A stretch of 64,000 nucleotides of DNA, taken from the NCBI GenBank assembly GCA_964644035.1, contig CAZXUH010000002.1, positions 104,881-168,880 of the forward strand, given 5' to 3'. Positions 7,788 to 61,734 of this stretch are shown one piece after another (position 1 is the stretch's first letter; each line of letters starts with the position of its first letter). The notes beneath the pieces are model-generated. The model did no database searches, was not told the origin of the DNA, and was given only the letters and a program-made list of their open reading frames with translations. The DNA is from an uncultured Candidatus Saccharibacteria bacterium. GTDB lineage: Bacteria; Patescibacteriota; Minisyncoccia; Phycocordibacterales; DAORIS01. A program made the translations under genes and the position numbers.

Positions 7788-8018
7788 TTATCTAAATATT
7801 ATAAGTAGGGCAGCCAAAGCCAGTAAAATTGCCCCGACGGCTATGTAGATACTCTGTACAGTTCTCATCAGCCGGTCATTGGTGCCGTAATTTCTCCAAT
7901 GATAGCTATAAACCACAGCTGAAATAATGAAGACAAGGAGTGTCAGGAACAATATAACCCACAAAATACTTCCATTGAGTGACAGATGTATATTCTGAAG
8001 GAGAGACTGCGTATTCAT
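7788..8018 (-). CDS. small hypothetical membrane protein (2 TM)
   Basis: 76-aa ORF with two hydrophobic helices, tightly packed before the PH-domain gene. No recognisable motif. Confidence 0.35.
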   Translation of the reverse strand: MNTQSLLQNIHLSLNGSILWVILFLTLLVFIISAVVYSYHWRNYGTNDRLMRTVQSIYIAVGAILLALAALLIIFR

Positions 8019-8052
8019 TGTATTTAAGTCTATTATATACTATACCTACACT

Positions 8053-8916: not shown

Positions 8917-8965
8917 TGTATACTTTACAGACCGTAAGTATGGCCCCCTTCTTACGTCTTATCAC

Positions 8966-41921: not shown

Positions 41922-44627
41922 ATGAAAAAGTTAATCAAAAGAATAATCATCGTCTGCATATTTTTATCAATACTATTTATTAGTAATACTGTTTTTGCTG
42001 AGACTAGAATCTCAAGTTCAATCGAACAAGATTTTGTCTGGATAAAATCAGCCGATCCGTATATTCTCGATAGTGATATAGATGTGTCAGAAAACGTAAA
42101 ACTTACGGTAGAGCCTGGAACAGAAATAAATCTAAACGGACATGAATTGTCAGTATTTGGGTCTATACACACAAATGGTTCTGTAGGGGAAAAGGTAAAA
42201 ATATATAGCAATGGCAGTGGACAAATATCCATAGAGAACAATCACGCTACTTCAAGTTTTATCTTTACTGATATAGAAAATGTGCGTTTAATTACTTCAT
42301 TTGGAGGTGGCACTATCTATGACAATGTTTCATTTGTAAAAACAGGCATTGCTCAGTCAAAGGGATTTTTAGATATAAGAAGAAGTAGCTTTTTTGGTGG
42401 TGCTCGAGGAATAAGTATTAGAAATGCTACCGCAACTTTAGATCATGTGTCGTTAAAAGATATTCAAAACAATGCTATATACATTTTCAAATCAACATTA
42501 CGTGGATCATATCTTGAGGTAGAAAATAGTAAATCAGGCATTCTTATTCAAGATAAAGGGCCAGTGCTCGTCTTTCTAAACAAAATATTTAAACCTGTGA
42601 CAGTTCTTGCGGATGGTGATTATTCTGTAAAAATTTCTAGCAGTACTATAGCTTCGAATCAAAATTTTAATGTAAGTAATGATACAGAATCAACAGTTGA
42701 TGCGCGAAACAATTGGTGGGGAAGTGATACGGGGCCAGGCGGGACTACTATTGGCAATGTGCTTTTCAGTCCTTGGCTTTTGACCAAACCTCAAGAAGAA
42801 GTGTTGCCAGAAATTATTTGTTGCTCAAATATATTGTTCCTGCCAGGGCTTCAATCGAGCAGACTTTTTTCGAACGGTCTTTTGGGAACTGAAAACCAGC
42901 TTTGGGAACCTAATAGAAACAAAGATGCTCAAAAGCTTTATCTAAACAAAGAAGGCAAGAGTATTACCAAAAATGTGTATGCAAAGGAGATTATTTCAGA
43001 AACTAATATTCTTCCTGTAGCAAAGATACCAATCTACAAATCTTTTATCTCAAATATGGATGCATTAGTTGCGTCTGGCACGATCAAGCAATGGCAGTCA
43101 CTACCGTATGATTGGCGTCTATCGCTAGAAGATGTCTATATCAAAAGTGATATTGGGAATGTCGTTTCTGGTCTAGCATCGACTTCTTTGTCTGGAAAAG
43201 TAACTGTTATTTCCCATAGCAATGGAGGGTTGCTGGCTAAATATGTTTTAGCTCAACTTGAGAAAAGTCAGAAGGAACATTTAATTGATAAGGTTTTATT
43301 TGTGGCAGTGCCGCATTTTGGTACGCCAAAAGCTATAGCTTCTTTATTGTATGGTGAAGATCAGGCAATTGCTGGAGGAGTGATCATGTCAAAAACCACC
43401 GCGAAAGGCTTGTCTGAAAATATGCCGTCAGCATTCAATCTGTTGCCGTCCCAAAAATATTTCAATGGATCAAATAACAACGTTATTACTACTCCAACTA
43501 CTACGGTGGATAGTGTATTGAAACTCAATAGTTTTTTGTCTCCACAGAACCAGTCTTTATTGTCTTCAGCAAATACAGTACATAGCTGGCTAGATAATTG
43601 GCAGCCACCAAACGGTATCGGTACCTATCAAATTATTGGAGATAATCTCTCCACTTTATTAGGTTTGTCCTATGTGAAACTTGCTAATGGTAGTCTAGAT
43701 CATCAACCAATTACTACCAAGAGAGGGGACGGTACTGTTGTATATCACAGTGCTTTGGCTGACTTTGCTTCGACAACAAAGATGGTTGATATGCGCAAAG
43801 AAAGTGCTGATCTAAAGAAAAATGTTACTCATGCCGCCATACTTGAAATACCCTCGGTCAATACCTGCATAGCATCATTTATCTCTAATGGTTTGTGTCC
43901 GAAATTGGCTCAGGCCTCAACGTTACCTACAATACCTTCAATCAATCTTCAGCGTTCAATGATTAACGGAGTTCATTCTCCTGTTGATATTGGTATGACA
44001 GATAAAGATGGCAACTATACAGGCAGAATATATCCAGAGACCGATTCCGATTTTGACTTCTATCGAGAAGATATTCCCGGAAGTAAATATATGGAAATAG
44101 GCGAAGGCAAGTATGTTGTTGTGGATGATATGAAAACTATTGAAAGTATTAGTATAAAGGGTACAGGCTTTGGAACTTTCTCTTATACGTTAGCCACGAG
44201 CACAGACAGTGGTGTTGCACTAAGTTTTGAATTTCAAGATATACCCGTCACTCCGGATACTATAGCAACTATCTCGCCAGACAAACCGCATCTCATGAAT
44301 ATAGATTTTGATGGCAATGGATCTATTGATGCCACTACTTCTGATAGTACAGCATTTGATCCATTGCTCTACATTTCAAGTATGAAGTTTTTTGTGGAAA
44401 AACTTTCCGTTTCCAAACCTGTTAAAGATCTTTTAATTCGCAGATTGGATAAAATATCAAAGAAAATAGAAAAAAATAATACTCCAGCTGTACGCCGAAC
44501 AGTGTACAAACTTGTCAGAAATATTAATTTTAAGAAACATGGCTTCAAGAAAATATCTAAAGAAGACATGGCTGCACTGCATGATCTTTTTATTAGATTT
44601 GCCGACGGTCTTGAAAAGATTCAATAA
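41922..44627 (+). CDS. secreted right-handed beta-helix domain protein fused to an LCAT/PGAP1-like alpha/beta-hydrolase (lipase/esterase) domain
   Basis: Signal peptide. Parallel beta-helix repeats ending in NNWWGSDTGP. Lipase nucleophile elbow VISHSNGG (GxSxG variant) and VPHFGTPKA downstream. Confidence 0.6.
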   Translation: MKKLIKRIIIVCIFLSILFISNTVFAETRISSSIEQDFVWIKSADPYILDSDIDVSENVKLTVEPGTEINLNGHELSVFGSIHTNGSVGEKVKIYSNGSGQISIENNHATSSFIFTDIENVRLITSFGGGTIYDNVSFVKTGIAQSKGFLDIRRSSFFGGARGISIRNATATLDHVSLKDIQNNAIYIFKSTLRGSYLEVENSKSGILIQDKGPVLVFLNKIFKPVTVLADGDYSVKISSSTIASNQNFNVSNDTESTVDARNNWWGSDTGPGGTTIGNVLFSPWLLTKPQEEVLPEIICCSNILFLPGLQSSRLFSNGLLGTENQLWEPNRNKDAQKLYLNKEGKSITKNVYAKEIISETNILPVAKIPIYKSFISNMDALVASGTIKQWQSLPYDWRLSLEDVYIKSDIGNVVSGLASTSLSGKVTVISHSNGGLLAKYVLAQLEKSQKEHLIDKVLFVAVPHFGTPKAIASLLYGEDQAIAGGVIMSKTTAKGLSENMPSAFNLLPSQKYFNGSNNNVITTPTTTVDSVLKLNSFLSPQNQSLLSSANTVHSWLDNWQPPNGIGTYQIIGDNLSTLLGLSYVKLANGSLDHQPITTKRGDGTVVYHSALADFASTTKMVDMRKESADLKKNVTHAAILEIPSVNTCIASFISNGLCPKLAQASTLPTIPSINLQRSMINGVHSPVDIGMTDKDGNYTGRIYPETDSDFDFYREDIPGSKYMEIGEGKYVVVDDMKTIESISIKGTGFGTFSYTLATSTDSGVALSFEFQDIPVTPDTIATISPDKPHLMNIDFDGNGSIDATTSDSTAFDPLLYISSMKFFVEKLSVSKPVKDLLIRRLDKISKKIEKNNTPAVRRTVYKLVRNINFKKHGFKKISKEDMAALHDLFIRFADGLEKIQ

Positions 44628-45826: not shown

Positions 45827-46441
45827 ATGAAGACCTTGGAAAAACTGTTTGGCAGCCTAGCGAAGGTAAAACTCATGAGGATGTTTCTGTTCAATCCAGA
45901 CAGTGCTTTTGACCTCCATACGATAGCCGATCGTTCCAAGGTGCCTACCAGACAAACAAGAACAGAGCTCAATAGACTAAGCGAAATGGGTCTTGTAAAA
46001 AAGCGTTCGGTCATTAAAACATACCCACCAAGAAAAAAAGATGGTAATCCAAGAAAGAAAAAGGTAGATGGCTGGACTCTCGATACTTCATTTATCTATA
46101 TCAATGAGCTTCGTCAGCTTCTGCTCAATTCGACGCTGATCAAAAATTCGGATATTATTATGCGCTTACAAAAAGGTGGTCGCATGAAACTCATTATTGT
46201 GGCAGGTATTTTTATTCAAAACCAAGACAGTCGACTCGATATGTTTGTGGTGGGAGATGGTATCAAGAAGGGAAGTTTGGAAAATGCTATTAAAATCATT
46301 GAATCTGAAATAGGCAAGGAATTGCGTTATGTATGGTTTGATACTGAAGAGTTCAAATATCGCTTGGCAATGTATGACAAGCTTATCAGAGATATTCTTG
46401 ATTTTCCTCACGAGAAAATCCTCAACAAGCTAACGTTCTAA
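45827..46441 (+). CDS. hypothetical protein: N-terminal winged-HTH plus C-terminal domain of unknown function (weakly nucleotidyltransferase-like)
   Basis: wHTH pattern LHTIADRSKVPTRQTRTELNRLSEMGLV. C-terminal GIFIQNQDSRLDMFVVGDG is loosely reminiscent of minimal NTase motifs. Confidence 0.35.
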   Translation: MKTLEKLFGSLAKVKLMRMFLFNPDSAFDLHTIADRSKVPTRQTRTELNRLSEMGLVKKRSVIKTYPPRKKDGNPRKKKVDGWTLDTSFIYINELRQLLLNSTLIKNSDIIMRLQKGGRMKLIIVAGIFIQNQDSRLDMFVVGDGIKKGSLENAIKIIESEIGKELRYVWFDTEEFKYRLAMYDKLIRDILDFPHEKILNKLTF

Positions 46442-46444: not shown

Positions 46445-47278
46445 ATGCTTCCACTTGTCACCCTGCTTCGGCCATATAACTGGATAAAGAATCTTTTTCT
46501 TTTTGTACCACTTTTTTTCGCTAAAGAATTTTTTAATACAGAAAAAATAGTTCCTACTACGTGGGCGTTTATTGCGTTTTGTCTGACTGCTAGTGCGGTC
46601 TATATCATCAATGATATTGCTGACAAAGATCAGGATAGCAAGCACTCGCTTAAAAAGTATCGACCAATTGCCTCTGGAAAAATATCTTCGGTGACAGCGT
46701 GGATTGCGGCCACTGTCTTAATGATTGCAGTTGCGGCAATTGTATATGTGAAGATTCCGGAAATCTTTCTTTTATTGCTCACATATTTTGTACTCAATAT
46801 TCTATATTCGCTCTGGCTTAAGCATGAAGCAGTAGTCGATATCCTTTTGGTAGCAACCTTTTATTCTTTGCGAATTATGATTGGAGGAGTGGCTGCAGAT
46901 GTCCCGGTTTCTCATTGGCTCATACTCTGCACGATTTTCATTTCACTCTTTTTGATTGTTGGTAAAAGAATGGCTGAATATGGGCAAGAGAATAAAAGAA
47001 GGGTTTTGGCCGCCTATACACCGACGTTTCTTCAGGCTCTACTTATCATTTCAGCTACACTGTCGATTATTTCTTACAGTCTCTATGCTGTACTTGTGCT
47101 CGATACCAACCTAGCAGCTTTCTCGGTATTCTTTGTACTTCTTGGTGTTATGCGCTATACATCGCTTATTCTCACTTCTCAAAAGGCCGAATATCCAGAA
47201 AAAGCTCTCGTAGGTGATGGGGTGATCGTAGTAAGTGGCTTGTTGTGGCTTGGTATGATGTATTTTATTTTTTACTAA
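46445..47278 (+). CDS. UbiA-family polyprenyl-phosphate 5-phosphoribosyltransferase (decaprenyl-phosphate phosphoribosyltransferase / DPPR synthase homolog)
   Basis: RPYNWIKNLFLF..P, YIINDIADKDQD (NDxxDxxxD), K(K)YRPIASG, LKHEAVVDIL, LR...GG.AA..PVS.W and SLFLIVGKRMAEY all match the Rv3806c family as I recall it. Confidence 0.75.
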   Translation: MLPLVTLLRPYNWIKNLFLFVPLFFAKEFFNTEKIVPTTWAFIAFCLTASAVYIINDIADKDQDSKHSLKKYRPIASGKISSVTAWIAATVLMIAVAAIVYVKIPEIFLLLLTYFVLNILYSLWLKHEAVVDILLVATFYSLRIMIGGVAADVPVSHWLILCTIFISLFLIVGKRMAEYGQENKRRVLAAYTPTFLQALLIISATLSIISYSLYAVLVLDTNLAAFSVFFVLLGVMRYTSLILTSQKAEYPEKALVGDGVIVVSGLLWLGMMYFIFY

Positions 47279-47282
47279 ACAT

Positions 47283-48317
47283 ATGAAATTTCTTATCACT
47301 GGCGGTTCAGGATTCCTTGGAATAAATTTTATACGCTATGCCCTTGATAGAGGGAATACGATTGTATCTCTCGATAAAGAAGATTTTGATTATCCTGAGA
47401 AAAATAAAATCACCAGTATTGTGGGTGATATTCGTGACAAAGATACTTTGAACAAAGCTATGATTGGTATCGATGTCGTCGTGCATACTGCTGCGGCACT
47501 TCCGTTGTATACCAAACAAGAAATATTTTCTACTGATATCGATGGTACAAAAAATGTATTGGAAGCCGCTTTTAAAAACAATGTATCGAGAGTGATACAT
47601 ATTTCTTCTACTGCTGTATATGGCATACCCGATCATCATCCCTTGCTCGAAACCGATACACTCGATGGTGTCGGACCATATGGCCAGGCAAAAATCTTGG
47701 CCGAAGAAGCGTGTCTGGAATATCGTAAGCAAGGCAAGTGTGTGTCTATCATACGACCAAAATCGTTTGTAGGTCCGGAGAGATTGGGTGTCTTTGCATT
47801 GTTTTATGACTGGGCACAAGATGGCAAGAATTTTCCAATGATTGGTAGTGGTAAAAATCGCTATCAACTACTCGATGTCGAAGATCTCTGTCAGGCGATT
47901 TATAGCTGTGCAACGCTTGATACTAAGATCGTCAACGATACATTCAATATCGGTGCCAAAGAATTTACTACTATGAAAGAAGATTATCAGGCTGTGCTCG
48001 ATAAGGCTGGTTTTGGAAAGAAGATAGTAGGTCTTCCAGCTAAGCCGGTTATTTGGACACTTCGACTTCTTGAATTGTTGCATTTGTCGCCATTGTACAA
48101 ATGGGTCTATGAAACAGCATCTGAAGATTCATTTGTATCTATAGAAAAAGCAGAGCGCAAGCTTGGGTACAAACCGCAGTATTCAAACAAGCAAGCTATG
48201 ATCCGCAACTATGAATGGTATTTGGAGAATCAGAAGAACTTCAAAGGCCTTTCTGGTGTGTCGCATCGCGTGCCTTGGAAGCAGGGTATATTGAAAATAG
48301 CCAAGATATTCTTTTAA
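47283..48317 (+). CDS. NAD-dependent epimerase/dehydratase (extended SDR)
   Basis: N-terminal ITGGSGFLG Rossmann motif and catalytic YGQAK (YxxxK). Confidence 0.8.
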   Translation: MKFLITGGSGFLGINFIRYALDRGNTIVSLDKEDFDYPEKNKITSIVGDIRDKDTLNKAMIGIDVVVHTAAALPLYTKQEIFSTDIDGTKNVLEAAFKNNVSRVIHISSTAVYGIPDHHPLLETDTLDGVGPYGQAKILAEEACLEYRKQGKCVSIIRPKSFVGPERLGVFALFYDWAQDGKNFPMIGSGKNRYQLLDVEDLCQAIYSCATLDTKIVNDTFNIGAKEFTTMKEDYQAVLDKAGFGKKIVGLPAKPVIWTLRLLELLHLSPLYKWVYETASEDSFVSIEKAERKLGYKPQYSNKQAMIRNYEWYLENQKNFKGLSGVSHRVPWKQGILKIAKIFF

Positions 48318-48328
48318 TACATACTACA

Positions 48329-49972
48329 ATGCTCAATTTCTTTTCTTCACCAACATACAATAAGATTTTCAAGATTTGTTTTGTGCTCTATATATTGTTT
48401 GCCGCATTGCTCATAGCCCGTTCGTCTTCTGTTGGTATCGATGGTCAGAGGCATTTTGTGCTTTTCGATGATGCAATGATCTCTATGCGTTATGCCGACA
48501 ACCTCGCTCATGGCAATGGCTTGGTTTGGAATATTGGCGAGAAGGTAGAAGGCTTCACCAATCCGCTCATGGTATTTATTATGTCTGTTGCTATTGTGAT
48601 ATTTGGGAATAATTACTCAATGCTGTTTATCCAACTCCTCGGTCTTGCATGTCTTGCAACAAATATATTTTTGGCCCACAAGATTATTTCTCGACTTCTA
48701 CATTCAGACGAGCAAAAAGACTTTCTGAAGTTTATTGGATTGCTTCTAGTGATGGTATGGTATCCGGTTATGTACTGGTCAGTATTTGGAATGGAGACAG
48801 GGTATCTCACTACATTACTGCTCTATATTTTCTATCTTTCTATATATAAAGATACGCAGAATAAAATCAGTATTGTTGTTCCGATCTTGCTTTCACTCGT
48901 CTATCTTTCTCGTCCTGAGGGAATTTTGTTTATTGGTATTTTCCTTCTATTTAGATTGATACAGCGCTGGCCGATAAAGAAAAACATGTTGCCTGTTGTT
49001 GTCGAGGGACTCATTGCTGCAGTGCCTATTGTTGGCTATCAAATATTTAGAGTTATGTATTATGGTCAGAGGTATCCCAATACATATATTCTCAAAGTCA
49101 CAGGTATGTCGATCGACGACCGTCTCAAAAATGGTTTTGGTTTCTATCAGCCATTCATCGACAGAGTAGAGATATTTATTGGCGCTGTCGTTATTTTCTT
49201 TTTTATCTATGCCTGGAAGAGCGGCATCCCAGTAAAAGAAAAAGTAAAGAATATTTTTGTCGGTTCATATCGCTATGTGACTATGTCTGTTCTTTTGTTC
49301 ATGACATATAGCGCATATCAGATTTGGGTTGGGGGAGATCCGTGGCCACCATTTTGGCGCATGACCGTCCCATATACTGTTCTCTTTTTCTTAGCTTTTG
49401 TCGTAGTGCTCGATGAATTGAGAAAACTCTTTACTATCAAAGCAGATATGTTCAAGGCTCTCGTAAGTATCATTGTCTTTGGTTTCCTTATGTTCATTCC
49501 ATACGACTATCATTTTGATTTCATGAGGCTTGAGCCATATCAGACTAGAAACAATGCAGAAAATATCAATATTGCTTTGGCGATCAAAGAAGTGACCGAT
49601 AGCAAAGCAACAGTAGCATCGTTTTGGGCTGGCACGATCCCATATCTTAGTGAACGCATGTCATTTGATCCACTTGGAAAGACCGATGCGTATATTGCTA
49701 CATTGTCGCCAGATGTTTCAGGTGCGGTGGCCAATCCAAACCGCGGACTCTACAGCATGCCAGGGCACAACAAATACGATCTCAACTATACGTTTGTAGA
49801 AAAGAAGCCAGATGTAATCATTTATATGGATGTTAATGGACACTACTGTGCGTGGGGTAAACAAAATCTCGAAGAATGGTGTAAGCGCAATTATTCTCTT
49901 ATCACGCACAAGGGAATACGATTGCTTGTGAAGAAAAACTCAAGTCACGTTTTGTGGGATAATATTAAATAA
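48329..49972 (+). CDS. GT-C fold polytopic membrane glycosyltransferase (ArnT/PMT/arabinosyltransferase-like)
   Basis: Start refined to the Met at 48329 after the epimerase stop. A dozen or more TM helices, first extracytoplasmic loop with acidic FDDAMISMRY, and a large C-terminal soluble domain. Confidence 0.55.
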   Translation: MLNFFSSPTYNKIFKICFVLYILFAALLIARSSSVGIDGQRHFVLFDDAMISMRYADNLAHGNGLVWNIGEKVEGFTNPLMVFIMSVAIVIFGNNYSMLFIQLLGLACLATNIFLAHKIISRLLHSDEQKDFLKFIGLLLVMVWYPVMYWSVFGMETGYLTTLLLYIFYLSIYKDTQNKISIVVPILLSLVYLSRPEGILFIGIFLLFRLIQRWPIKKNMLPVVVEGLIAAVPIVGYQIFRVMYYGQRYPNTYILKVTGMSIDDRLKNGFGFYQPFIDRVEIFIGAVVIFFFIYAWKSGIPVKEKVKNIFVGSYRYVTMSVLLFMTYSAYQIWVGGDPWPPFWRMTVPYTVLFFLAFVVVLDELRKLFTIKADMFKALVSIIVFGFLMFIPYDYHFDFMRLEPYQTRNNAENINIALAIKEVTDSKATVASFWAGTIPYLSERMSFDPLGKTDAYIATLSPDVSGAVANPNRGLYSMPGHNKYDLNYTFVEKKPDVIIYMDVNGHYCAWGKQNLEEWCKRNYSLITHKGIRLLVKKNSSHVLWDNIK

Positions 49973-49973
49973 C

Positions 49974-50333
49974 ATGGCAACCATATATCTCATCGCAGCA
50001 TTTCTGCTCAATGGTACGGCAAATATTCTACTTAAGATCGGATCGAAAAAGGGAATAGTGTTTGATGGTGTGAGTCTGCAAACCATCACTGCCAATTATC
50101 TTTTTATTTTGGGACTCATATGTTTTGCACTCAATGCACTGTTTTATTTTCTTGCGCTTAAAGCTTTGCCTCTGACAGTTGCATATCCGGTTATGATCGG
50201 CATGAGCTTGATCATTATCAATGCCTTCGCGCTTATCTATCTCAATGAAAGTATCAACTTCATGCAGATGATCGGGTATGGGTTGTTGGTCATTGGGGTT
50301 GGATTTATTTTTTATTTTTCATCAGCACGATAA
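49974..50333 (+). CDS. small 4-TM SMR/DMT-like membrane protein (ArnE/ArnF-like flippase candidate)
   Basis: 119 aa, four hydrophobic helices, sequence pattern like EamA/ArnE (NGTANILLKIGSKK...). Confidence 0.5.
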   Translation: MATIYLIAAFLLNGTANILLKIGSKKGIVFDGVSLQTITANYLFILGLICFALNALFYFLALKALPLTVAYPVMIGMSLIIINAFALIYLNESINFMQMIGYGLLVIGVGFIFYFSSAR

Positions 50334-50800
50334 TGCGTACATATTTTGAAAATCTCAATATCGATGGTTGGTCAGGACAGACAGTGCTTGTCGATATCGA
50401 TGGCACACTGACCGTCGATGGTAGTGCTGAAGTCAGTCAGCAAGCAGTCGCTCAAATGAAACGCATTCTTAGTGCCAATACAGTATTTCTCACTTCCAAT
50501 AAAAGAAAACCTGAGCGCAATTATCAAGTAGCTCAAATGCTCAATGTGCCGTTTATCGACAGTCCATTTAAAAAGCCAAACAAAAAAGTTATTGAACGTT
50601 TCTCACACCTCTTTAAACAAAATGTTTTGGTGATTGGAGACAAGTTTTTGACCGACGGTCTATTTGCTAAAAACATAGGTGCACGGTTTATCAAAATCAG
50701 ACGTCTGACTTCCAAAAGTGACAGTGTGAAGACCAAAATTACCTATTTTGTAGATGATGTTGTTTCAGCCCTTTTAAGTCCCTTTTTCAGGTCATTTTAG
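50333..50800 (+). CDS. HAD superfamily phosphatase (subfamily IIIA, YqeG-like)
   Basis: Motif I VLVDIDGTL, motif III K(K)P, motif IV VIGDKFLTD. Confidence 0.7.
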   Translation: MRTYFENLNIDGWSGQTVLVDIDGTLTVDGSAEVSQQAVAQMKRILSANTVFLTSNKRKPERNYQVAQMLNVPFIDSPFKKPNKKVIERFSHLFKQNVLVIGDKFLTDGLFAKNIGARFIKIRRLTSKSDSVKTKITYFVDDVVSALLSPFFRSF

Positions 50801-50839: not shown

Positions 50840-50867
50840 TTGACGCTCTGGGGGGTCTTGGTATATA
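50840..50867 (+). promoter_or_regulatory. strong sigma70-type promoter in the rRNA leader
   Basis: TTGACG, 16-nt spacer, TATATA, about 340 nt upstream of the 23S 5' end. Confidence 0.55.
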
Positions 50868-50950
50868 CTGTCTTTCACTTGAATATGTTGAACACAAATA
50901 GCCAAAGATTGAAGCGGTCCTAAGACTCCGGTCTTAGCTTTTGCAAAAAA

Positions 50951-50985: not shown

Positions 50986-51741
50986 GTTCAAGTAAGACAT
51001 GGTCTTTGACAACTGAATCCTGCGACAATACTCAAACTCAAAATTTGAAATGGTGTCGAACACCGTATTGGACGCAGATTGAATTGATTGTAGGTAATTG
51101 AAGTTATATAAAATTTTCTCCTTGTCAGGCTAGTAACTTGGCGAGGGGGTCTTTCATTTTATGTAACAGGATAAAGTAGAATATAAGATTGTGGTTCTTA
51201 CATTTCCTAATAAGGAAATTAAGGGCATATGGTGGATGCCTTGACTCTACATGGCGATGAAGGACGCAGCATGGCGGCGATACGCTTCGGGGAGGTGCCT
51301 AGCAACCTTTGATCCGAAGATGTCCGAATGGGGTAACCCCTCTGTTAATCAGAGACGTACGCACATTAGCGTACGTGCATACCCAGGGAAGTAAAACATT
51401 TCAGTACCTGGAGGAATAGAAACCAATTGGTATTTCCTTAGTAGCGGCGAGCGAAAAGGAAGAAGCTCAAACTCAGCTCTCAACTTTGTTATTGGAGATT
51501 TATTTTTCCAATTCAAAGTTGATAGCTGGGGGTTGTAAGGTAGCAGCGTGATTTTTAAAATCAGAAAAGTTACAAAACAAATTGTTAGAAGAACAACCTG
51601 GAAAGGTTGACCATAGTGGGTAATAGTCCCGTATTTGAAAATAATTTGTCTTTTCAGTTGTTATTCTTGAGTACTTCGAGACACGAGTGGCTCGGAGGAA
51701 TCTGCCGGAACTAACCGGTAAAGCTAAATACATGTAGAGAT

Positions 51742-51778
<37 letters not shown>

Positions 51779-52353
51779 AAGCCCGGAAGGGCAGTGAAAT
51801 AGAACTGAAACCATATGTCTACAAGGAGTCGATGCGGGTATTTATATCCGCTACGGCGTGCCTATTGAAGAATGAGCCAACGAGTTGATGCATAGTGTAC
51901 GCTAAGGGCGAGAGCCTGGAGCGATAGGGAAACCGAGTGTTAATAGCGCGCCTATACTATTCATCAGACCCGAAACCAGAGCGAGCTAATTATGAGCAGG
52001 GTGAACTTCAGAGAAATCTGGAGGGAGGCCCGAACGGTTGAGCCGTGCAATACTCTCCGATGACTTGTGATTAGAAGTGAAAAGCTAACCGAGCCTGGTA
52101 ATAGCTGGTTCTCTCCGAAATAGCTTTTGGGCTAGCGTCATGTGTTCCCCTCGGGGGTAGAGCACTGGAAGGTCTCGACAGGGAGAAATCTCGCGAGACC
52201 TATCAAACTCCGAATACCGAGGATTAAAAGCGTGGCAGTTAGACTGTGGGGGCTAAGCTCCATTGGTCAAAAGGGAAACAGCCCGGATCTCAATTTAAGG
52301 TCCCTAAATCTATGCTAAGTGCACTTAAGGTAGTGTTTCGTCTATGACACTGA

Positions 52354-52385
<32 letters not shown>

Positions 52386-53189
52386 GAAAGCGTAACAGCT
52401 CACTCAGTAAGACGCGATGCGCCGAAGATAATCGGGGCTAAGCATAGTACCGAAACTGAGGATTGTACATTTTTTCGAATTTGTACACTGGTAGGAGAGT
52501 TTTCTTGTCTGCGATGAAGGCAAAGGGGTGACCCATGCTGGAGCGTCAAGAAGTAAGAATGTTGGCACAAGTAACCACAAGGTTTGTGAAAACCAAACCC
52601 GCCGAAAGAACAAGGTTTCCTTCGCGATGACAATCAGCGAAGGGTAAGTCGGGCCTAAGGCAATGACGAGAGTCGCAGCCGATGGACACACGGTTAATAT
52701 TCCGTGACTTTTATTGCAAGTGATGGGAGGACGGAGTGTAGTATGTATCGCGCATTATTGGATTTGACGTTCGTGTTCTGAGTGTGGCTTCCTGGCAAAT
52801 CCGGAAGCGGCCGCAAGGCGCACACAAGGAAAGCGAAAATGCTCAGGGCTTGCTCTGAGTAAATGATACAAAGCACGCTTCCAAGAAAAGTCTCTAAACT
52901 TATTGTAATGAAAACCGTACCGCAAACCGACACAGGTGTTCAGCTCGAGTAGAGCAAGGCGAACGGGTGAGGGGTCTCCAAGGAACTCGGCAAAAAAGCA
53001 GCCGTAACTTCGGAATAAGGCTTGCCTTCAGCAATGAAGGCCGCAGCTAAAGTATGCTTGGCAACTGTTTATCAAAAACACAGCTCCCTGCGAACTCGCA
53101 AGAGGATGTATAGGGGGTGACACTTGACCAATGCCAGAAGGTCAAACGTTGGCGGTGAGATTATATCAAGCTGACTGATGTAAGCCCTG

Positions 53190-53224
<35 letters not shown>

Positions 53225-53536
53225 TCTCTGTTGATACAGGTGTAAATATCTGGATGAACAGAGAAGGATTGGGGCTGTTATATGTTTGTGAATTGATAAC
53301 AAAAGGAGCCGTAATATGTCATAGAAAGAGGAATTAATTAAAAACGCTACCCTTCATGAGTGATCATGAAGTCCAAAACTGACTGTATGTGTACAATCTA
53401 CTTAAGATTGCTACGCAGGAAAGACTCGAATATTCGAAAGAATGATCGAGAATCCCCAGAGACCAGACGTCAGGCTAGATCGCAAGGTCTAGTAAGAAAG
53501 AGTCCATACTCAATAGCAATATTGAGCTTATAATAG
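53225..53536 (+). other. ORF-less group I intron in 23S rRNA at E. coli position L1931 (312 nt)
   Basis: Interrupts GGTCCTAAGGT|AGCGAAATTCC. The 5' exon ends in U and the intron ends in G. R-like (CAGAGACCAG) and S-like (AAGAAAGAGTCC) core elements are present. Confidence 0.7.
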
Positions 53537-54199
53537 AGCGAAATTCCTTGTCAGGTAAGTTCTGACGCGCACGAATAGTGTAATGACTGAGCAACTGTCT
53601 CGGAGACTCGCCCGGTGAAAATACAATACCGGTGAAGATGCCGGTTACCTGCAGATAGACGAAAAGACCCTAGAAGCTTTACTACAACTTGGTATTGAGC
53701 GTATGTTTTTACTGCGTAGCATAGAGGTGAGACTTTGAAGTTTCGTTTTCGGATGAAATGGAGTCGTCAGTGAAATAGCCTTCTGTCAAAATATACGTTC
53801 TAACCTCGAGGGAAAAAACCGCGAGAGACAGTATCTGGTGGGTAGTTTTAGTGGGGCGCTATCCTCCTAAAAAGTAACGGAGGAGTTTATTAAGGTCAGC
53901 TAACCGCGAATGGAAACCGTGGTAATAGTGTAATGGCACAAGCTGGCTTAACTGTAAGACGTACTTGTCGAGCAGATGCGAAAGCAGAACATAGTGAACC
54001 GACCATACGCGTTAGATGCGGTGGAAGATTATCGGACAAAAGCTACTCTAGGGATAACAGGCTGGTACTGCCTAAGAGTCCATATCGACGGCAGTGTTCG
54101 GCACCTCGATGTCGGCTCATCTTATCCTGGGGGCGGAGAAGCTCCCAAGGGTTTGGCTGTTCGCCAATTAAAAAGATACGCGAGCTGGGTTCAGACCGT

Positions 54200-54649
54200 T
54201 AAGGAGCTATTTAGATTGCTTCTTAAAAACAGTATTTTCGAAATGCACGCATAATTTTCTGTTGAAAATTTGCTCCTGCTCGGCCTCACGGCCTGTGCAA
54301 GGCATTTCTCAAACATGTTTTTAAGTTGTATAAATAGCGGCTCTTTAACAGTCTGAATCCCGAGGAAACTTTCACTAAACGTATTTCATGCATATTCATT
54401 TATGCGAGTACGTGATACCCAGAAGAAAGTCTGTTACTAACCATATTCACGGCGGTTATTCGAAGTAATTCGTATAACTCAAAACACAACTAATATCGGT
54501 AAAACCCGGGAGGGCAATACCGAGAGAACTCACAAATTTATTTTGTGAGGCTCGTAGAGACTAAACGTTGTGCTCCTCTGATTTCTATTAATATGAAGTT
54601 TGAGGATGAAGCTATAGTCCAATGCCCGGAGCAATCTGGGAAAAACATG
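54200..54649 (+). other. ORF-less group I intron in 23S rRNA at E. coli position L2593 (450 nt)
   Basis: Interrupts AGACCGT|CGTGAGACAG. The intron ends in G. R-like (GTAGAGACTAAA) and S-like (GAAGCTATAGTCC) core elements are present. Confidence 0.7.
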
Positions 54650-55038
54650 CGTGAGACAGGTTGGTCTCCTATCTACTGCAGGCGTTGATTCTTGAGGAGA
54701 TTTGTCTTTAGTACGAGAGGACCGAGATGAACTGACCTCTGGTCTGGGAGCTCTGCCGCCAGGTGGACCGCTCCGTAGCTATGTCAGGCACAGATAACCT
54801 CTGAATGCATCTAAGAGGGAAGCTGTCTCCAAGATGAGGAATCGTTTAGACTCCTGAGAGATGATCAGGTTGATAGGCACTAGGTGTACGCATAGTAATA
54901 TGTTGAGCCGAGGTGTACTAATAAGTCGATTCTTATTAGGAAATGTGTGAATTACATCTTACGTTAGAACTTTATCCTGTTACATGGAATGAAATTCCAT
55001 GAGAGACAGTATTTACAATCAATTTAGTATTTGAATTT

Positions 55039-55156
55039 TCTGTTCTGGTGGTTTGTCGCGGGGGTCACACCTGATCTCATTCCGAACTCAGAAGTTAAGC
55101 CCCGTTGAGGCGATGATATCCTTATGGAGGGGAAAGTAGCTAGCCGCCGGTACAGA
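55039..55156 (+). rRNA. rrf: 5S ribosomal RNA
   Basis: CCTGATCTCATTCCGAACTCAGAAGTTAAGCC core. Helix I pairs TCTGTTCTGGTGG with CCGCCGGTACAGA. Confidence 0.85.
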
Positions 55157-56638: not shown

Positions 56639-57811
56639 ATGTTTTCAATTTTCGGAAAGAAATCCCATACCGACTGGATTTTACTCGTCTCTGCAATGCT
56701 GATCACACTTGCTGGAGCGGTGACGATGTATTCGTTTAGAGATAGCGGTACAGCAGCGTGGTATGACGGTGGAATATTTTTCAATAGACAACTTCTTTAT
56801 CTAGCAGTGTCATTTATCGTGGCTATTGTATTTGCTTCGATCGATTTTAGATTTATGCGTAATACAAGTGTGGTCGTCTCGCTATTTACAGGTTCGCTCT
56901 TCTTTCTCGGACTTTTGTTTGTGCTCGGTCATGTGGCCAAGGGTGCACAAAGCTGGTTTCGCATCGGTGGATTTTCATTTCAACCTGTTGATCTAGCAAA
57001 GATTGCTCTGATCATTCTGTTGGCGAAATACTTCAGTCGTAGGCATATTGAGATCAGAAATATCCGTCATATTATCGTGTCGGGTGTATATGCAAGTGCA
57101 GTCTTCTTTCTCGTCTTGCTTCAGCCCGATTTCGGATCGGCCGTCATTATATTCCTTGTTTGGTTTGGTATGGTGCTTGTGTCAGGTATTTCATACAAAC
57201 ATATATTACTTGTAGTAAGTATCGGTGTTATTTCAAGTCTGGTGTTGTGGGGTTTTGTATTTAAAGATTATCAGAAAGCCAGAATCAGAACCTTCGTCAA
57301 TCCGCTCACAGATATACGTGGCGCAGGCTACAATGCCTATCAATCCATGATCGCTGTCGGATCTGGGCAAATGCTTGGAAAGGGTATTGGTTATGGTACT
57401 CAATCGAGACTACGATTCTTACCTGAATATCAGACCGACTTTATATTTGCAGCGTTTGCTGAAGAGTGGGGATTTATAGGTGCTTTTATTTTGCTTGGTT
57501 TGTATGCGACGCTCTTGTGGCGCATTTTCCATCATTCTATACGAGGGGAAAGTAACTTCGAAATTCTTTTCGGATTTGGTATCGGTATTTTGTTTTTAGT
57601 GCTTGCTTCGGTCAATGTTGGTATGAATATTGGCGTTTTACCTGTGACCGGCGTACCACTACCCTTTATGAGTTATGGAGGTAGTCATTTACTTACAGAA
57701 TATATTGCACTCGGTCTGCTTATGGGTATGAGCTCATATGCTCGACCCACTCATCGAAGTGTCCTTAAAAGAGAAATAGAGAGTGTTACTCCTACTAATA
57801 TTACCAAGTAG
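56639..57811 (+). CDS. SEDS family peptidoglycan glycosyltransferase (FtsW/RodA)
   Basis: 10-TM protein with a conserved loop (QPDFGSA...; LPVTGVPLPFMSYGGS). Confidence 0.88.
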   Translation: MFSIFGKKSHTDWILLVSAMLITLAGAVTMYSFRDSGTAAWYDGGIFFNRQLLYLAVSFIVAIVFASIDFRFMRNTSVVVSLFTGSLFFLGLLFVLGHVAKGAQSWFRIGGFSFQPVDLAKIALIILLAKYFSRRHIEIRNIRHIIVSGVYASAVFFLVLLQPDFGSAVIIFLVWFGMVLVSGISYKHILLVVSIGVISSLVLWGFVFKDYQKARIRTFVNPLTDIRGAGYNAYQSMIAVGSGQMLGKGIGYGTQSRLRFLPEYQTDFIFAAFAEEWGFIGAFILLGLYATLLWRIFHHSIRGESNFEILFGFGIGILFLVLASVNVGMNIGVLPVTGVPLPFMSYGGSHLLTEYIALGLLMGMSSYARPTHRSVLKREIESVTPTNITK

Positions 57812-58316
57812 AAGCTCCTGAAGTGTAGACTGCAATGCTCTGATCAGATGTAGATGGTCGATCAAATGGATGTGCTGGACTGTTTGGATCAAAGTTTTCT
57901 GCGCCATTGTATGCTGCAAGCATGTATTCAGATCCGTCTGATCGATAAATATAGCAGCGTGTACCGGCGCCAGGTAGAGGGTCTTCAGAAAGAGTAGAAA
58001 TATATGTTGGTACTACGCCTGGTATGTAGCCCGTTGGTCCGTATCCTTGTGCTGGTACAGCAGCTCCTGCGCATGTACCTGCTCCAGCTCTAAACTGGCC
58101 CGATGTATTTGGGAATGACCCGTATTCATTTCTATAGAGTTCAATTGCTTTTTGCATTTCACGAAGGTCGCGCATGCGCTCTGTGTCGCGGGCTTTCTTT
58201 TTGGTGCCGACTGTCTGAGCAAAAATAATTGATGCCAAGAAGGTGATAATCGAGACGACAACCATCAATTCTATTAGGGTAAAGCCTTTGCGTGTCTTAG
58301 CGGTGAGGATTTTCAT
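57801..58316 (-). CDS. type IV pilin / pseudopilin
   Basis: Class III signal peptide MKILTAKTRKG|FTLIELMVVVSII (G-1, F+1, E+5) followed by a soluble globular domain. Confidence 0.8.
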   Translation of the reverse strand: MKILTAKTRKGFTLIELMVVVSIITFLASIIFAQTVGTKKKARDTERMRDLREMQKAIELYRNEYGSFPNTSGQFRAGAGTCAGAAVPAQGYGPTGYIPGVVPTYISTLSEDPLPGAGTRCYIYRSDGSEYMLAAYNGAENFDPNSPAHPFDRPSTSDQSIAVYTSGASTW

Positions 58317-59424
58317 AGACTTCTTTTAACTTATCTATCATTGTAGCATGGCTGAAATTATCTTTCACTTGCTTATAAAGTGCTTCAGAAAGGAAGTCCT
58401 TATCGGTATTGGAAGTAATATATTCTAGACCTTCAAAAAAACTACCGGCATTTGACGGCTCAACAAGAACACCATTTACCCTATCTGTTATAAGTTCTGG
58501 TATTCCACCTACTTTTGAGGCAACAACTGGTAGGTGGGCTAGTGCAGCTTCAAGAGGGACGTAGGGGAAAGCCTCAGTTCTTGAAGTGAGAGTGAAAATA
58601 TCAAAAGCCTTGAGATATCTGGCGGCATCTTTTACAAATCCTGCCAGAGTGACATGGAGCCACAAATTATTGTCACGAATATATGTTTCAAGTTCTTTTC
58701 TCTGTTCGCCTTCACCGACGATTATAAAATGCGAAAGAGGGTTATTATTTCTAAACTGATTGAAACCTTGTAGTGCTATATCCAAACCTTTATTTCTATG
58801 AAGTTCCGATATGGTACCAATTACCAGTGTGCCAGGCTTCAGCGTCCCTATACCAAGCATTTCTCGAGCATTCTCACGAGGTATGAAATCGATATCTCCA
58901 ATGCCGTTGTATATGACTTTGATTTTTTTGGAAACCCAAGGAAGGGTATTGATATCATTCTTTATTTTTTCTGCCACGGCGATGGTGGTATGGGAAAGCA
59001 TGACGGTAATCCAGTGTACGATAAGTATTATTTTCTTCTGAAGCCATGGTCTGTTTTCATTGAAGGCCCAACCGTGTCCAGTAAAAATGATATTGGGAAC
59101 TTTTGCGAAGCGAGCAGCCAAGGCGCCGATGCCGCCGATTTTAGAACTATTGAGATGAACAATATCAGGCTTTTCCTTTTTAAAAATAGACATAAGCTCG
59201 AACAAAGAACGAATGTCTTTTATAAAAGAAATATCTCGGACGAGAGATTTCATTGAAATAGTACGAATATTTTTTTCAGCTAGTTTTTCAAAAAGAACGC
59301 CGTTGCCACCACCGATGACGGCTACGTCATACTGGCTATTTAGATGGGTTGCAACATCGTAGACATATCTCTGTGCACCACCAAAATTGGTCTTGGTAAT
59401 AATCAGGAAGAGTTTCTTCTTCAT
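58297..59424 (-). CDS. GT4 family (GT-B) glycosyltransferase
   Basis: C-terminal E..G.P..E motif region (EAFPYVPLEAALAHLPVVASKVGGIPELI). Confidence 0.8.
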   Translation of the reverse strand: MKKKLFLIITKTNFGGAQRYVYDVATHLNSQYDVAVIGGGNGVLFEKLAEKNIRTISMKSLVRDISFIKDIRSLFELMSIFKKEKPDIVHLNSSKIGGIGALAARFAKVPNIIFTGHGWAFNENRPWLQKKIILIVHWITVMLSHTTIAVAEKIKNDINTLPWVSKKIKVIYNGIGDIDFIPRENAREMLGIGTLKPGTLVIGTISELHRNKGLDIALQGFNQFRNNNPLSHFIIVGEGEQRKELETYIRDNNLWLHVTLAGFVKDAARYLKAFDIFTLTSRTEAFPYVPLEAALAHLPVVASKVGGIPELITDRVNGVLVEPSNAGSFFEGLEYITSNTDKDFLSEALYKQVKDNFSHATMIDKLKEVYENPHR

Positions 59425-59491
59425 GCAATCAATATACCATGCATTTGGCGTCAGACGGGACAGAAAAGGCTTATTTTGCTAGACTATCGCC

Positions 59492-60832
59492 ATGGATCAT
59501 ATTCCTCGTTCCAGCCGATTATTTATCTTTTTCGGGGACGTCATTCTTCTCTATGTAGCACTTGTTGCTGCCCTTTGGATTCGTTATCCTCGCGGAATCT
59601 CTCGAGAAATTGTTGAAGTACATATTCTACCGTTCTCAATTCTGTTCGTATTGTGGATCACTGTATTTTTGATTGCTGGATTGTATAAAAAACATCTTAG
59701 TGTCAGAAAAAATCGTTTGCCGAGCACTATTCTTAGAGTTCAGATTATCAACAGTGTGTTGGCGGTTATCTTTTTCTATTCGACAACCTATTTCGGAATT
59801 GCTCCGAAGACGACGCTCTTTATTTATCTACTCGTATCTTTTTTCATGATTACGCTCTGGCGTATGTACGGACCTATTCTGCTTGGTAATAGGGCAGACT
59901 TGGCAATTTTCATTACTGCAGGCGGAGAATCAAATGAACTCACTGAAGAACTTCGCAGGTACAAAGGGTATCCAATTGCAGTAGCCCAAGTGATCGATTT
60001 AGAAAAAGAAACAGATGTTGTCGGTGCTCTCAAAGCGGCTGTTGCCAACAATCCCGAGGCATCGATACTCGTATCTGATCTCGACGATGTACGAATGAAT
60101 CCTGCTTTGCAGTATGTCTACGAACTCGTTAGTCGTGGCTATGCGTATTTTAGTATTCACAGCGTCTATGAAGAAGTATTTCAGCGTTTGCCTGTCTCGC
60201 TTCTCGACGATCGCTGGCTGATTGAGCATATGTCGCTTTTCCCGGGCCGGGCATACGATATTCTCAAAAGGACTGTCGATATTGTGGCTGGCACGCTGGC
60301 TTTTATCATCTCTCTTCCTTTTTATATAATTGCTTTCATACTTATCAAGCTCGATGACGGTGGACCACTGTATTTTGTCCATGAACGCGTCGGTCAGAAA
60401 AACAGGCCGATCAGGATCGTAAAATTTAGAAGCATGTCCGTGCATGACGAAAAAGATGGTTTGGCAAAAGAAAAGAAATTGACACGCGTTGGTACCTTTC
60501 TTAGGAAATCTCGTATCGATGAACTGCCTCAGCTTTGGAATGTGATAAAGGGTGATCTTTCACTTATTGGTCCGCGTTCCGAACTTCCAAAGCTCGTTGC
60601 TGTCTATGAAAAAGAAATTCCTTACTATGCACTTCGCCATAGCGTGAAGCCAGGACTTTCGGGCTGGGCACAGATCAATCAAAAGACGCCGCCAAAGTTT
60701 TTTGCCGATTCAGAACTCACTAAGCAGAAAGTTTCTTATGATCTCTATTACATACAACACCGATCATTTATGCTCGATATGTTGATTGTGTTGCAAACGA
60801 TTCGTGAACTTGTTTCAAGTAGGGGAATATAA
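59492..60832 (+). CDS. initiating polyprenyl-phosphate sugar-phosphate transferase (bacterial sugar transferase family, WbaP/CpsE-like)
   Basis: N-terminal TM bundle plus a C-terminal Bac_transf domain (KFRSM...DELPQLWNVIKGDLSLIGPR). Confidence 0.82.
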   Translation: MDHIPRSSRLFIFFGDVILLYVALVAALWIRYPRGISREIVEVHILPFSILFVLWITVFLIAGLYKKHLSVRKNRLPSTILRVQIINSVLAVIFFYSTTYFGIAPKTTLFIYLLVSFFMITLWRMYGPILLGNRADLAIFITAGGESNELTEELRRYKGYPIAVAQVIDLEKETDVVGALKAAVANNPEASILVSDLDDVRMNPALQYVYELVSRGYAYFSIHSVYEEVFQRLPVSLLDDRWLIEHMSLFPGRAYDILKRTVDIVAGTLAFIISLPFYIIAFILIKLDDGGPLYFVHERVGQKNRPIRIVKFRSMSVHDEKDGLAKEKKLTRVGTFLRKSRIDELPQLWNVIKGDLSLIGPRSELPKLVAVYEKEIPYYALRHSVKPGLSGWAQINQKTPPKFFADSELTKQKVSYDLYYIQHRSFMLDMLIVLQTIRELVSSRGI

Positions 60833-60840
60833 TACATATA

Positions 60841-61734
60841 ATGAATAAAAAAGTAGTTGTCACCGGCGGTGCAGGATTTATCGGGTCAAATCTTGTCGAC
60901 GGTCTGATTGCTGCTGGATATGATGTGCATGTCATTGATAATTTGATTGCTGGCAAAAAAGAACAGGTCAATCCAAAAGCTACGCTACATATAAAAGACA
61001 TTTGTTCTGTTTCAGATATTGAACCTATTTTGAAAAATACCGATGTGGTATTTCATCTTGCGGCATTGCCTCGCGTGCAGGATTCGATCGACAATCCAGC
61101 GCAAGTACATGAAGTCAATGTCACTGGCACACTCAATATGCTCGTCGCTTCTTCTAAAGCAAAGGTCAGAAGGTTTATATTCACATCTTCCGCTGCAGTG
61201 TATGGTGATCAGCAGGATTTGCCACTCAAAGAAAGTCATATTCCAACTCCTAAAAGTCCATATGGACTTCACAAACAAATAGGTGAGCAATATGCGCGTT
61301 TGTGGAATGAATTGTACGGTCTTGAGACTGTGTCTCTTCGATATTTCAATGTCTATGGTCCAAGACAAAGTGCCCAAGGCTCATATCCATTGGTCATAGC
61401 AAAATTCATTGATCTCAAAAAACAAAACAAACCTCTTACGATTACCGGTAGTGGGGAACAAACAAGAGATTTTGTGCATGTGAGCGATATTGTTGCAGCA
61501 AATATTGCAGCGGCAGAAAATAAAAGTATAGGAAAAGGTGAAGTGATCAATATCGGCAGCGGCGTAGAAACTTCGGTCAAAACCGTCGCGTCTACTGTTG
61601 GCGGGCAGATTGAGTATATTGCAGCTCGAGTGGAACCAAGTCGTTCGGTAGCCGATGTTTCACTTGCGGCAAAACTTTTGCAATGGAAAAGCAAAGTAGA
61701 TTTTAAAAAGGGTATAGCTGATCTCCTTATATAA
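60841..61734 (+). CDS. NAD-dependent epimerase/dehydratase (GalE-like short SDR)
   Basis: VTGGAGFIGSNL and catalytic YGLHK (YxxxK). Confidence 0.8.
   Translation: MNKKVVVTGGAGFIGSNLVDGLIAAGYDVHVIDNLIAGKKEQVNPKATLHIKDICSVSDIEPILKNTDVVFHLAALPRVQDSIDNPAQVHEVNVTGTLNMLVASSKAKVRRFIFTSSAAVYGDQQDLPLKESHIPTPKSPYGLHKQIGEQYARLWNELYGLETVSLRYFNVYGPRQSAQGSYPLVIAKFIDLKKQNKPLTITGSGEQTRDFVHVSDIVAANIAAAENKSIGKGEVINIGSGVETSVKTVASTVGGQIEYIAARVEPSRSVADVSLAAKLLQWKSKVDFKKGIADLLI

Follow-up and report, generated by a model that had tools for sequence, protein, structure and literature searches.

A window of DNA from an uncultured Candidatus Saccharibacteria bacterium (the whole stretch analysed here, 64,000 nucleotides of contig CAZXUH010000002.1) carries, at positions 46445-50800, five tightly packed genes, all on the plus strand in the list of open reading frames (ORFs) of the window. 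We consider it probable that these genes form one operon for extracytoplasmic pentofuranosylation via a polyprenyl-phosphate-linked donor, and the roles that we assign to the five proteins are all supported by family or structural matches. Judged by its component types, we place the module among the three-component glycosylation systems of Kelly, Duong, Nothof, Lowary and Whitfield (PNAS 2024), as a Patescibacteria member related to the mycobacterial decaprenyl-phospho-arabinose (DPA) pathway and not new in kind: it combines a donor branch derived from phosphoribosyl pyrophosphate (PRPP) with an AftB-like transferase, and reveals no new principle. The first-pass annotation of this DNA had taken the module to indicate an undescribed pentofuranosylated surface glycoconjugate; as systems of this type were published in 2024 and called widespread (PMC11127046), the module is less novel than was first assumed. 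The five consecutive, co-directional genes are as that annotation had them, and its intergenic spacers of 1-11 nt were essentially right: the actual values are 4, 11, 1 and -1 nt, the last being a TAATG overlap of the fourth and fifth genes. In order, the genes encode:

46445-47278, plus strand, 277 aa: predicted UbiA-type polyprenyl-phosphate 5-phosphoribosyltransferase, of the polyprenyl-phosphoribose synthase (PPPRS)/DPPR-synthase type

47283-48317, plus strand, 344 aa: extended NAD-dependent short-chain dehydrogenase/reductase (SDR), candidate epimerase of the lipid-linked pentose

48329-49972, plus strand, 547 aa: AftB-like GT-C (GT-C_A) glycosyltransferase with a C-terminal extracytoplasmic alpha/beta domain

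49974-50333, plus strand, 119 aa: putative four-helix SMR/DMT-like membrane protein, candidate flippase of the lipid-linked pentose

50333-50800, plus strand, 155 aa: HAD-IIIA protein (YqeG/PGP-phosphatase-like), candidate polyprenyl-phospho-ribose-5-phosphate 5'-phosphatase

The longest ORF of the GT-C gene begins at 48215, inside the SDR gene; a start at the ATG at 48329 gives the 547-aa protein, the same in length and sequence as a public database entry (P0121).

The pathway would run as follows. On the cytoplasmic face, the UbiA-type enzyme would move 5-phosphoribose from PRPP to polyprenyl phosphate, probably undecaprenyl phosphate, a step strongly supported by homology; the HAD protein would then strip the 5'-phosphate to leave polyprenyl-phospho-ribofuranose, as gene fusions and co-conservation suggest. 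The SDR, with its bound NAD, may transiently oxidise and re-reduce one ring hydroxyl of the lipid-linked ribose, a role suggested by the position of its gene, the type of its motifs, the displacement of the DprE1/DprE2 genes and the precedent of ORF13 from Citrobacter. The product would be either xylofuranose, with the change at C3 as for ORF13, or arabinofuranose, with the change at C2 as for DprE1/DprE2. Judging from family and context, a dimer of the SMR-like protein would flip the lipid-linked pentose to the outer leaflet, where the AftB-like GT-C, whose fold and residues were observed and whose substrates are presumed, would add the pentofuranose to an envelope acceptor. Since AftB is a retaining enzyme, it can be speculated that the new linkage would be beta if this chemistry is shared.

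The identification of the UbiA protein as a PRPP:polyprenyl-phosphate 5-phosphoribosyltransferase is strongly supported by its sequence. It matches Pfam UbiA (6.1e-25) and scores 205.9 bits with NCBIfam NF008978, the model for decaprenyl-phosphate phosphoribosyltransferase (cutoff 207), and 193 bits with NF008977 (cutoff 234), both models built mainly from Actinobacteria; with models of heme-o synthase, 4-hydroxybenzoate and other prenyltransferases it reaches no more than 49 bits, and with the ubiA models no more than 31. It also matches the structure of Rv3806c (PDB 8j8j; E 1.5e-39) over residues 4-270. The first-pass annotation had read the protein as a DPPR synthase and not a quinone prenyltransferase, from the motifs YIINDIADKDQD, KKYRPIASG, LKHEAVVDIL, PVSHW and GKRMAEY; all of them are in the translation, and the reading stands. 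The residues of Rv3806c that hold Mg2+, diphosphate, ribose and the 5'-phosphate have been listed, and true prenyltransferases do not conserve those that bind phosphoribose (PMC10994848). In the HMMER alignment, 10 of the 12 Mg/PRPP/5'-phosphate residues are identical in the window protein: R22, K28, Y70, N73 and D77 of Rv3806c correspond to R9, K15, Y53, N56 and D60, and K87, R90, Y138, K143 and Y157 to K70, R73, Y121, K126 and Y140, the remaining two being conservatively changed (Q135 to N118, K208 to R). Restricted to the cluster for ribose, 5'-phosphate and Lys/Arg-bound diphosphate (R22, K28, Y70, K87, R90, Q135, Y138, K143, Y157, K208), the count is 8 of 10. The N-D-x-x-D-x-x-x-D motif for Mg2+ and diphosphate in the first cytoplasmic loop (N56, D57, D60, D64, equivalent to N73, D74, D77, D81 of Rv3806c) is invariant in 36 homologs, as are most of the Rv3806c-type PRPP-binding positions. 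Relatives of this protein in genome contigs were found by an alignment-based scan, a single-sequence scan having found none, and a search of phages returned one unannotated match.

The arrangement of the genes recurs in relatives. The sample comprised 80 loci centred on UbiA, taken from species-representative genomes, and 80 centred on SDR, taken from metagenomes; the proteins of the window and profiles served to score their ORFs. Many of the contigs are short, and the co-occurrence counts are accordingly lower bounds. The neighbourhoods of the first three UbiA homologs already contained UbiA, SDR, HAD, a small membrane protein and at least one large polytopic protein, in varying order. Overall, 34 independent related loci have their UbiA and SDR orthologs no more than 4 kb apart and in every case on one strand, and this recurrence argues that the five-gene grouping is not a chance juxtaposition. 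The SDR gene is immediately downstream of UbiA in 30 of these loci, with most gaps of 50 nt or less. Of the 34 loci, 24 have a HAD gene of the window type, 15 one for an SMR-like protein and 24 one for a large polytopic membrane protein, which is AftB-like in only 6. Thus, the co-conservation that the first-pass annotation had set as a check was observed. Most of the 34 are from Patescibacteria; the loci that could be named belong to Saccharibacteria, Paceibacterota, Peregrinibacteria, a few Spirochaetes and one Lachnospiraceae genome. An AftB-like GT-C ortholog (52-62% identity) is encoded on the same contig as orthologs of UbiA and SDR in no fewer than three further Candidate Phyla Radiation (CPR) genomes: L003/L004, a 168,679-bp contig (P0122/P0008/P0247) and a 135,839-bp contig (P0129/P0015). 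One further protein, P0236, was considered as a UbiA-GT-C fusion and rejected: its UbiA segment is only partial (residues 22-155), so that it may be a miscalled gene, and we counted it as an adjacency.

Gene fusions connect the phosphatase with the first enzyme. In eight loci (L007, L010, L016 and five further ones) the HAD domain is fused N-terminally to UbiA, with identities to the window proteins of 38-40% (HAD) and 43-46% (UbiA) in the three loci named, and the domain order is that of Citrobacter ORF15. In L103/L104, a continuous 585-aa ORF (7395-9152), directly upstream of UbiA and SDR, encodes an unclassified membrane domain of nine helices that is followed, at the C-terminus, by a HAD of the window type (37% identity). 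The locus of an Acinetobacter (L067) is informative in another way: there, the homologous UbiA is flanked by a FAD_binding_4 protein (DprE1-like), a classical short SDR (DprE2-like) and a PAP2 phosphatase. This is the mycobacterial DprE1/DprE2/Rv3807c set, and the extended SDR and the HAD of the CPR loci therefore stand where this set has its epimerase and phosphatase. A third layout of the system was seen in Ignavibacteria/Bacteroidota (L035, 8421-11821; similar in L030, L038 and L051), in which a distant AftB-like GT-C (about 80 bits) precedes UbiA; in L035 a ten-helix EamA transporter follows UbiA, and loci of this type have no adjacent epimerase or phosphatase.

The second protein is an extended SDR, as the first-pass annotation had it (Pfam Epimerase, 3.3e-38), with the motifs GGSGFLG, D31, SSTAVYG and YGQAK. 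In this it resembles the GalE-type epimerases, and it lacks the Asp-Glu pair of the 4,6-dehydratases. The NCBIfam scan gave no equivalog for it. Its AlphaFold2 (AF2) model (predicted local distance difference test, pLDDT, 84.7) has a generic GalE/RmlB-like fold, and the structure search returned only generic GalE/RmlB-like matches of no more than 25% identity, with no clue to the substrate. As for the sugar produced, the first-pass annotation had proposed a lipid-linked pentose (DPA/DPR-like) donor. The lipid-linked pentose donor is upheld, and DPA-like is only one of its possible forms, because the single-SDR precedent gives xylofuranose (C3) and arabinofuranose is added by systems with DprE1/DprE2, neither of which is present here: a scan of the operon and of 37 window proteins gave no match to FAD_binding_4 or adh_short. 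The published rule that a single SDR makes xylofuranose would favour this sugar if the window SDR is a homolog of ORF13. The AftB-like GT-C and its conserved Thr252, on the other hand, fit arabinofuranose, because the Thr of AftB at this position is in contact with the donor analogue at its C2 substituent. We regard the two products as about equally likely.

The third protein was expected to be a GT-C enzyme, and this is what its fold indicates. Pfam gave no match, and the only PDB sequence match is AftB (9dlf; E 6.3e-11 with the single sequence, 1.1e-18 with the profile), the terminal beta-(1->2)-arabinofuranosyltransferase of CAZy family GT89. The NCBIfam model for beta-arabinofuranosyltransferase is matched at E 3.9e-12, and the AftB equivalog model, NF041481, at 45 bits (cutoff 1050); the sequence match is limited to residues 40-289, or to about 340 with the profile, and identity in the structural alignment is 18%. 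From these comparisons, we classify the protein as a homolog of AftB and not as its ortholog or equivalog. The AF2 model is confident (pLDDT 93.9, predicted template modelling score 0.93), and Foldseek placed AftB first (E 1.2e-9, TM 0.56 over 531 columns) and ArnT second, followed by the oligosaccharyltransferases PglB and AglB, ALG9 and AftA, all of the GT-C_A set. In AftB, the catalytic residue is D62 of the DD motif, at the tip of juxtamembrane helix 1, while donor contacts are made by R221 and R372 to the phosphate and by E172 and T274 to the arabinofuranose (PMC12041299). D62, E172, R221 and T274 are equivalent to D48, E156, R195 and T252 of the window protein, and R372 to R344 within one or two residues; these five positions are invariant or nearly so in 40 homologs. 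The DD motif (D47-D48) opens the helix formed by residues 47-60, the first juxtamembrane helix of the model, so that the check for a GT-C catalytic loop set by the first-pass annotation came out in favour of its reading. Taken together, the fold and the conserved residues predict an active enzyme with an AftB-like donor site, and we infer that its donor is the pentose made by its operon neighbours.

The two small proteins complete the set. The 119-aa protein passes the Pfam cutoffs for both Multi_Drug_Res (29.4 bits, cutoff 23.7) and EamA (28.8, cutoff 28.2), and its best NCBIfam match is ArnF (5.3e-9; 36.6 bits, cutoff 99), in line with the SMR-like, ArnE/ArnF-resembling protein of the first-pass annotation. 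A simple hydropathy scan found four to five hydrophobic segments. The first of them contains no acidic residue, so that the coupling Glu of EmrE is absent; a drug/proton antiporter of EmrE type is therefore unlikely, given what is established for EmrE. The last protein, proposed to be a HAD-IIIA phosphatase, has the HAD motifs DIDGT (DxDGT) and GDKFLTD (GDxxxTD) and scores above the cutoff with Pfam PGP_phosphatase (30.5 bits), which agrees with that proposal. It matches TIGR01668 (YqeG) at 5e-14 (52.2 bits, cutoff 89.1) and TIGR01662 at 34.1 bits (cutoff 44.6), and by these scores is related to YqeG but not its equivalog. The model for the HAD of the fused type (NF006088, PRK08238-type) was not matched by this protein, and its homology to the published PRP domain is therefore only at the level of the superfamily.

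Several observations speak against the operon as we read it. The UbiA score is 1 bit below the NF008978 equivalog cutoff, and those of the GT-C, SMR-like and HAD proteins are far below theirs. Other points concern the SDR, the best 120 database matches of which are all 74-81% identical to it and come from Patescibacteria, Peregrinibacteria, Spirochaetales, Serpentinicella (Clostridia), Chloroflexota and Ignavibacterium; over the same range, UbiA is only 34-61% identical. An alignment of 30 SDR sequences has a mean column identity of 77%, and its C-terminal tail is invariant and yet modelled with low confidence. Among the 55 SDR-centred metagenome loci with enough upstream flank, 40 have no UbiA neighbour and 15 have one, and in larger genomes the SDR gene usually stands alone among unrelated genes; for Serpentinicella, Chloroflexia, Spirochaetales and many metagenome contigs these are of the housekeeping type. 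Being both ultra-conserved and often without a UbiA neighbour, the SDR may have a wider or different role. It could then be that the module makes and transfers plain ribofuranose, and that the SDR acts on some other, general substrate and merely travels with the operon in small genomes; the generic resemblance of its fold to nucleotide-sugar enzymes, and the Citrobacter O1 system, which works without an epimerase, would agree with this. We judge this explanation unlikely, given that UbiA and SDR are paired on the same strand with near-zero spacing in 34 loci, and independently in haloarchaea, Streptomyces and Lachnospiraceae, and that the SDR holds the position taken by DprE1/DprE2 in the Acinetobacter locus. 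Furthermore, the phyla with stand-alone SDRs carry PPPRS homologs elsewhere (at the level of the phylum, not of the same genome), which makes a dispersed SDR/PPPRS arrangement plausible.

The pairing with UbiA extends to more distant relatives. SDR orthologs of 40-50% identity adjoin UbiA genes on haloarchaeal and Streptomyces plasmids, and the haloarchaeal loci also encode a PHP-domain phosphatase, GT-C enzymes and an MprF-like flippase domain. One such cluster (L087), at 195464-210489 of the Natronococcus sp. CG52 plasmid NZ_CP099392.1, brings together an SDR ortholog of 50% identity, a gene of the UbiA family, a PHP-domain phosphatase, a protein with an MprF-like flippase domain and two GT-C (PMT/GT39-like) genes; from its gene content, it appears to be the pathway in archaeal form, with a further type of phosphatase.

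The GT-C gene raises a separate doubt. It is the variable part of the module among relatives and the least conserved member of the neighbourhood: AftB-like orthologs travel with the module in only a few genomes, other CPR loci have PMT_2-type or unclassified polytopic proteins instead, and the distant GT-C homologs stand alone. This could mean that the enzyme uses another polyprenyl-phosphate sugar, for instance a hexose, and adjoins the donor genes by chance, the pentose donor being used by a transferase encoded elsewhere. We hold this to be very improbable. The sole solved relative depends on arabinofuranosyl-phospho-decaprenol, and the residues that contact phosphate and pentose are conserved; the gene sits within the operon, with spacers of 11 and 1 nt, and its orthologs occupy the same position in the other CPR genomes mentioned above. 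Moreover, exchange of the GT-C between like systems is expected when acceptors differ.

Finally, the idea that UbiA is an ordinary aromatic/quinone prenyltransferase, HAD a housekeeping YqeG and the cluster unrelated to pentoses, to which the automatic JGI name of many homologs ('4-hydroxybenzoate polyprenyltransferase') and the best HAD model (YqeG) might lead, is effectively refuted by the gap between 205.9 bits on the phosphoribosyltransferase model and at most 31 on the ubiA models, by the residues for 5'-phosphate and ribose, which true UbiA prenyltransferases do not keep, by the existence of HAD-UbiA fusions and by a YqeG score below its cutoff.

The pentofuranosylation module can thus be set beside three systems. 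The closest is that of Citrobacter youngae O1/O2, for which Kelly et al. described pentofuranose glycosylation by three components: ORF15, a HAD phosphatase fused to a UbiA-type PPPRS that converts PRPP to lipid-phospho-ribofuranose; ORF14, a small ArnE/ArnF-like flippase; and ORF12, a GT-C that is the founding member of GT136 and closest to ArnT (PMC11127046). In O2, the side chain is xylofuranose in place of ribofuranose, owing to a single cytoplasmic GalE-like SDR (ORF13), and systems that add arabinofuranose carry DprE1/DprE2 homologs instead of a single SDR (PMC11127046). The authors described the strategy as widespread, with no mention of Patescibacteria (PMC11127046), and our full-text literature searches found no paper linking a PRPP-derived pentofuranose pathway with CPR. 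With the roles predicted for the window proteins, the two systems agree in pathway logic and component types: a PPPRS that uses PRPP, a HAD 5'-phosphatase, an ArnE/ArnF-like flippase, a GT-C and a single SDR as auxiliary epimerase; the combination that defines a system of this kind, PPPRS with a flippase candidate and a GT-C, is found here within a single operon, no spacer of which exceeds 11 nt. However, they differ as follows: (i) the HAD is fused to the PPPRS in Citrobacter, whereas in the window it is a separate gene, of a YqeG/PGP-like subfamily. (ii) The Citrobacter GT-C is ArnT-like (GT136), and that of the window is closest to AftB both in the PDB sequence search and in the Foldseek search. 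(iii) Citrobacter has an O antigen, while the window belongs to a Patescibacterium with neither outer membrane nor O antigen, so the acceptor must differ. One of the candidate loci listed by Kelly et al., that of Rhizobium sp. CCGE531, encodes a homolog of the window SDR (33% identity) and, next to it, an SMR transporter, a GMC oxidoreductase, a second SDR and a HAD-UbiA fusion.

A similar picture emerges with the mycobacterial DPA pathway. The first enzyme is homologous to Rv3806c and keeps its active-site residues, the transferase is homologous to AftB and keeps the catalytic Asp and the residues that contact the donor, and the proposed order of the steps is the same, with a lipid-linked donor that is made, dephosphorylated, epimerised, flipped and transferred. 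The components in between are different: (i) mycobacteria use the FAD-dependent DprE1 and the classical short SDR DprE2, where the window operon has one extended SDR. (ii) Their phosphatase, Rv3807c, is a PAP2 protein, and that of the window a HAD. (iii) Their flippase, Rv3789, is GtrA-like, and the candidate in the window is SMR-like. (iv) Unlike the mycobacterial pathway, the module has a single transferase and no arabinan polymerases. With the Arn system of Gram-negative bacteria (ArnT with ArnE/ArnF, acting on undecaprenyl-phosphate-L-Ara4N, the 4-amino-4-deoxy-L-arabinose donor), the module shares the pairing of a small SMR-like protein, here a candidate flippase, with a GT-C_A enzyme, the donor of which would here too be a pentose on undecaprenyl phosphate. 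The donors differ in origin: a nucleotide sugar and a GT2 enzyme give that of the Arn system, whereas that of the window would come from PRPP via the UbiA-type enzyme, and the ArnE/ArnF pair contrasts with a single SMR-like gene.

The operon lies between rplJ-rplL on one side and a 23S-5S rRNA pair on the other, and the nearest named homologs of its proteins are from Patescibacteria, Parcubacteria and Minisyncoccia, in keeping with a genome of Patescibacteria/Parcubacteria type. A 204-aa gene (45827-46441), the stop of which is 3 nt before UbiA, was considered as a sixth member and left out of the module, because it had no homolog in about 170 related loci (0 found); with a weak N-terminal winged-helix/DUF4423 match, its product may be a genome-specific regulator co-transcribed with the operon. 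Promoter and terminator scans of the operon region gave nothing above shuffled expectation, and the sole good promoter-like site (50840-50869) lies past the operon end, before the 23S rRNA. The match to the latter (51209-54939), which begins about 400 nt after the operon, covers 3731 nt against a model of 2925 nt, which corresponds to some 800 nt of insertions; the 5S follows at 55044-55152, and no 16S gene or tRNA was found upstream of the 23S. The window also encodes BacA/UppP (4388-5206) and FtsW/RodA (56639-57811), from which it follows that a polyprenyl-phosphate carrier cycle exists in the organism. Some 8-10 kb downstream of the operon (58297-61734) are a GT4 glycosyltransferase on the minus strand, a Bac_transf initiating phosphoglycosyltransferase and a second extended SDR (297 aa), which could be a candidate pathway for building the acceptor glycan.

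Two other genes of the window have unusual domain structures. Just upstream of rplJ, 41922-44627 encodes a 901-aa secreted or membrane-anchored protein with an alpha/beta-hydrolase domain of the lecithin:cholesterol acyltransferase (LCAT) type at residues 371-530. At 20420-23863 there is an IleRS-like class I aminoacyl-tRNA synthetase (1147 aa), the catalytic domain of which is divided by an inserted His_Phos_1 (histidine-phosphatase) domain at residues 503-657.

Patescibacteria spend their lives on the cells of a host and rely on contact at the surface, and their surface glycans are almost unexplored experimentally. A compact, conserved operon that predicts an unusual envelope sugar is a concrete target for chemical analysis, labelling and inhibition in cultivated Saccharibacteria. 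Our analysis extends the PRPP-derived pentofuranose pathway to a large uncultured radiation and draws attention to an extended SDR family that is conserved like translation factors and uncharacterised as to its substrate. As a tentative proposal, which goes well beyond the operon itself and which we put forward as conceivable rather than likely, this SDR would be an uncharacterised single-protein, NAD-only epimerase of polyprenyl-phospho-ribose that replaces the FAD/quinone-dependent DprE1/DprE2 where respiratory chains are absent and that would provide arabinofuranose or xylofuranose donors in Patescibacteria, Chloroflexota, Spirochaetes, Clostridia and haloarchaea. If this is true, pentofuranosylated envelopes, possibly with beta residues added by AftB-like retaining GT-C enzymes, would be a widespread surface feature of the CPR and not a speciality of mycobacteria and a few O antigens.

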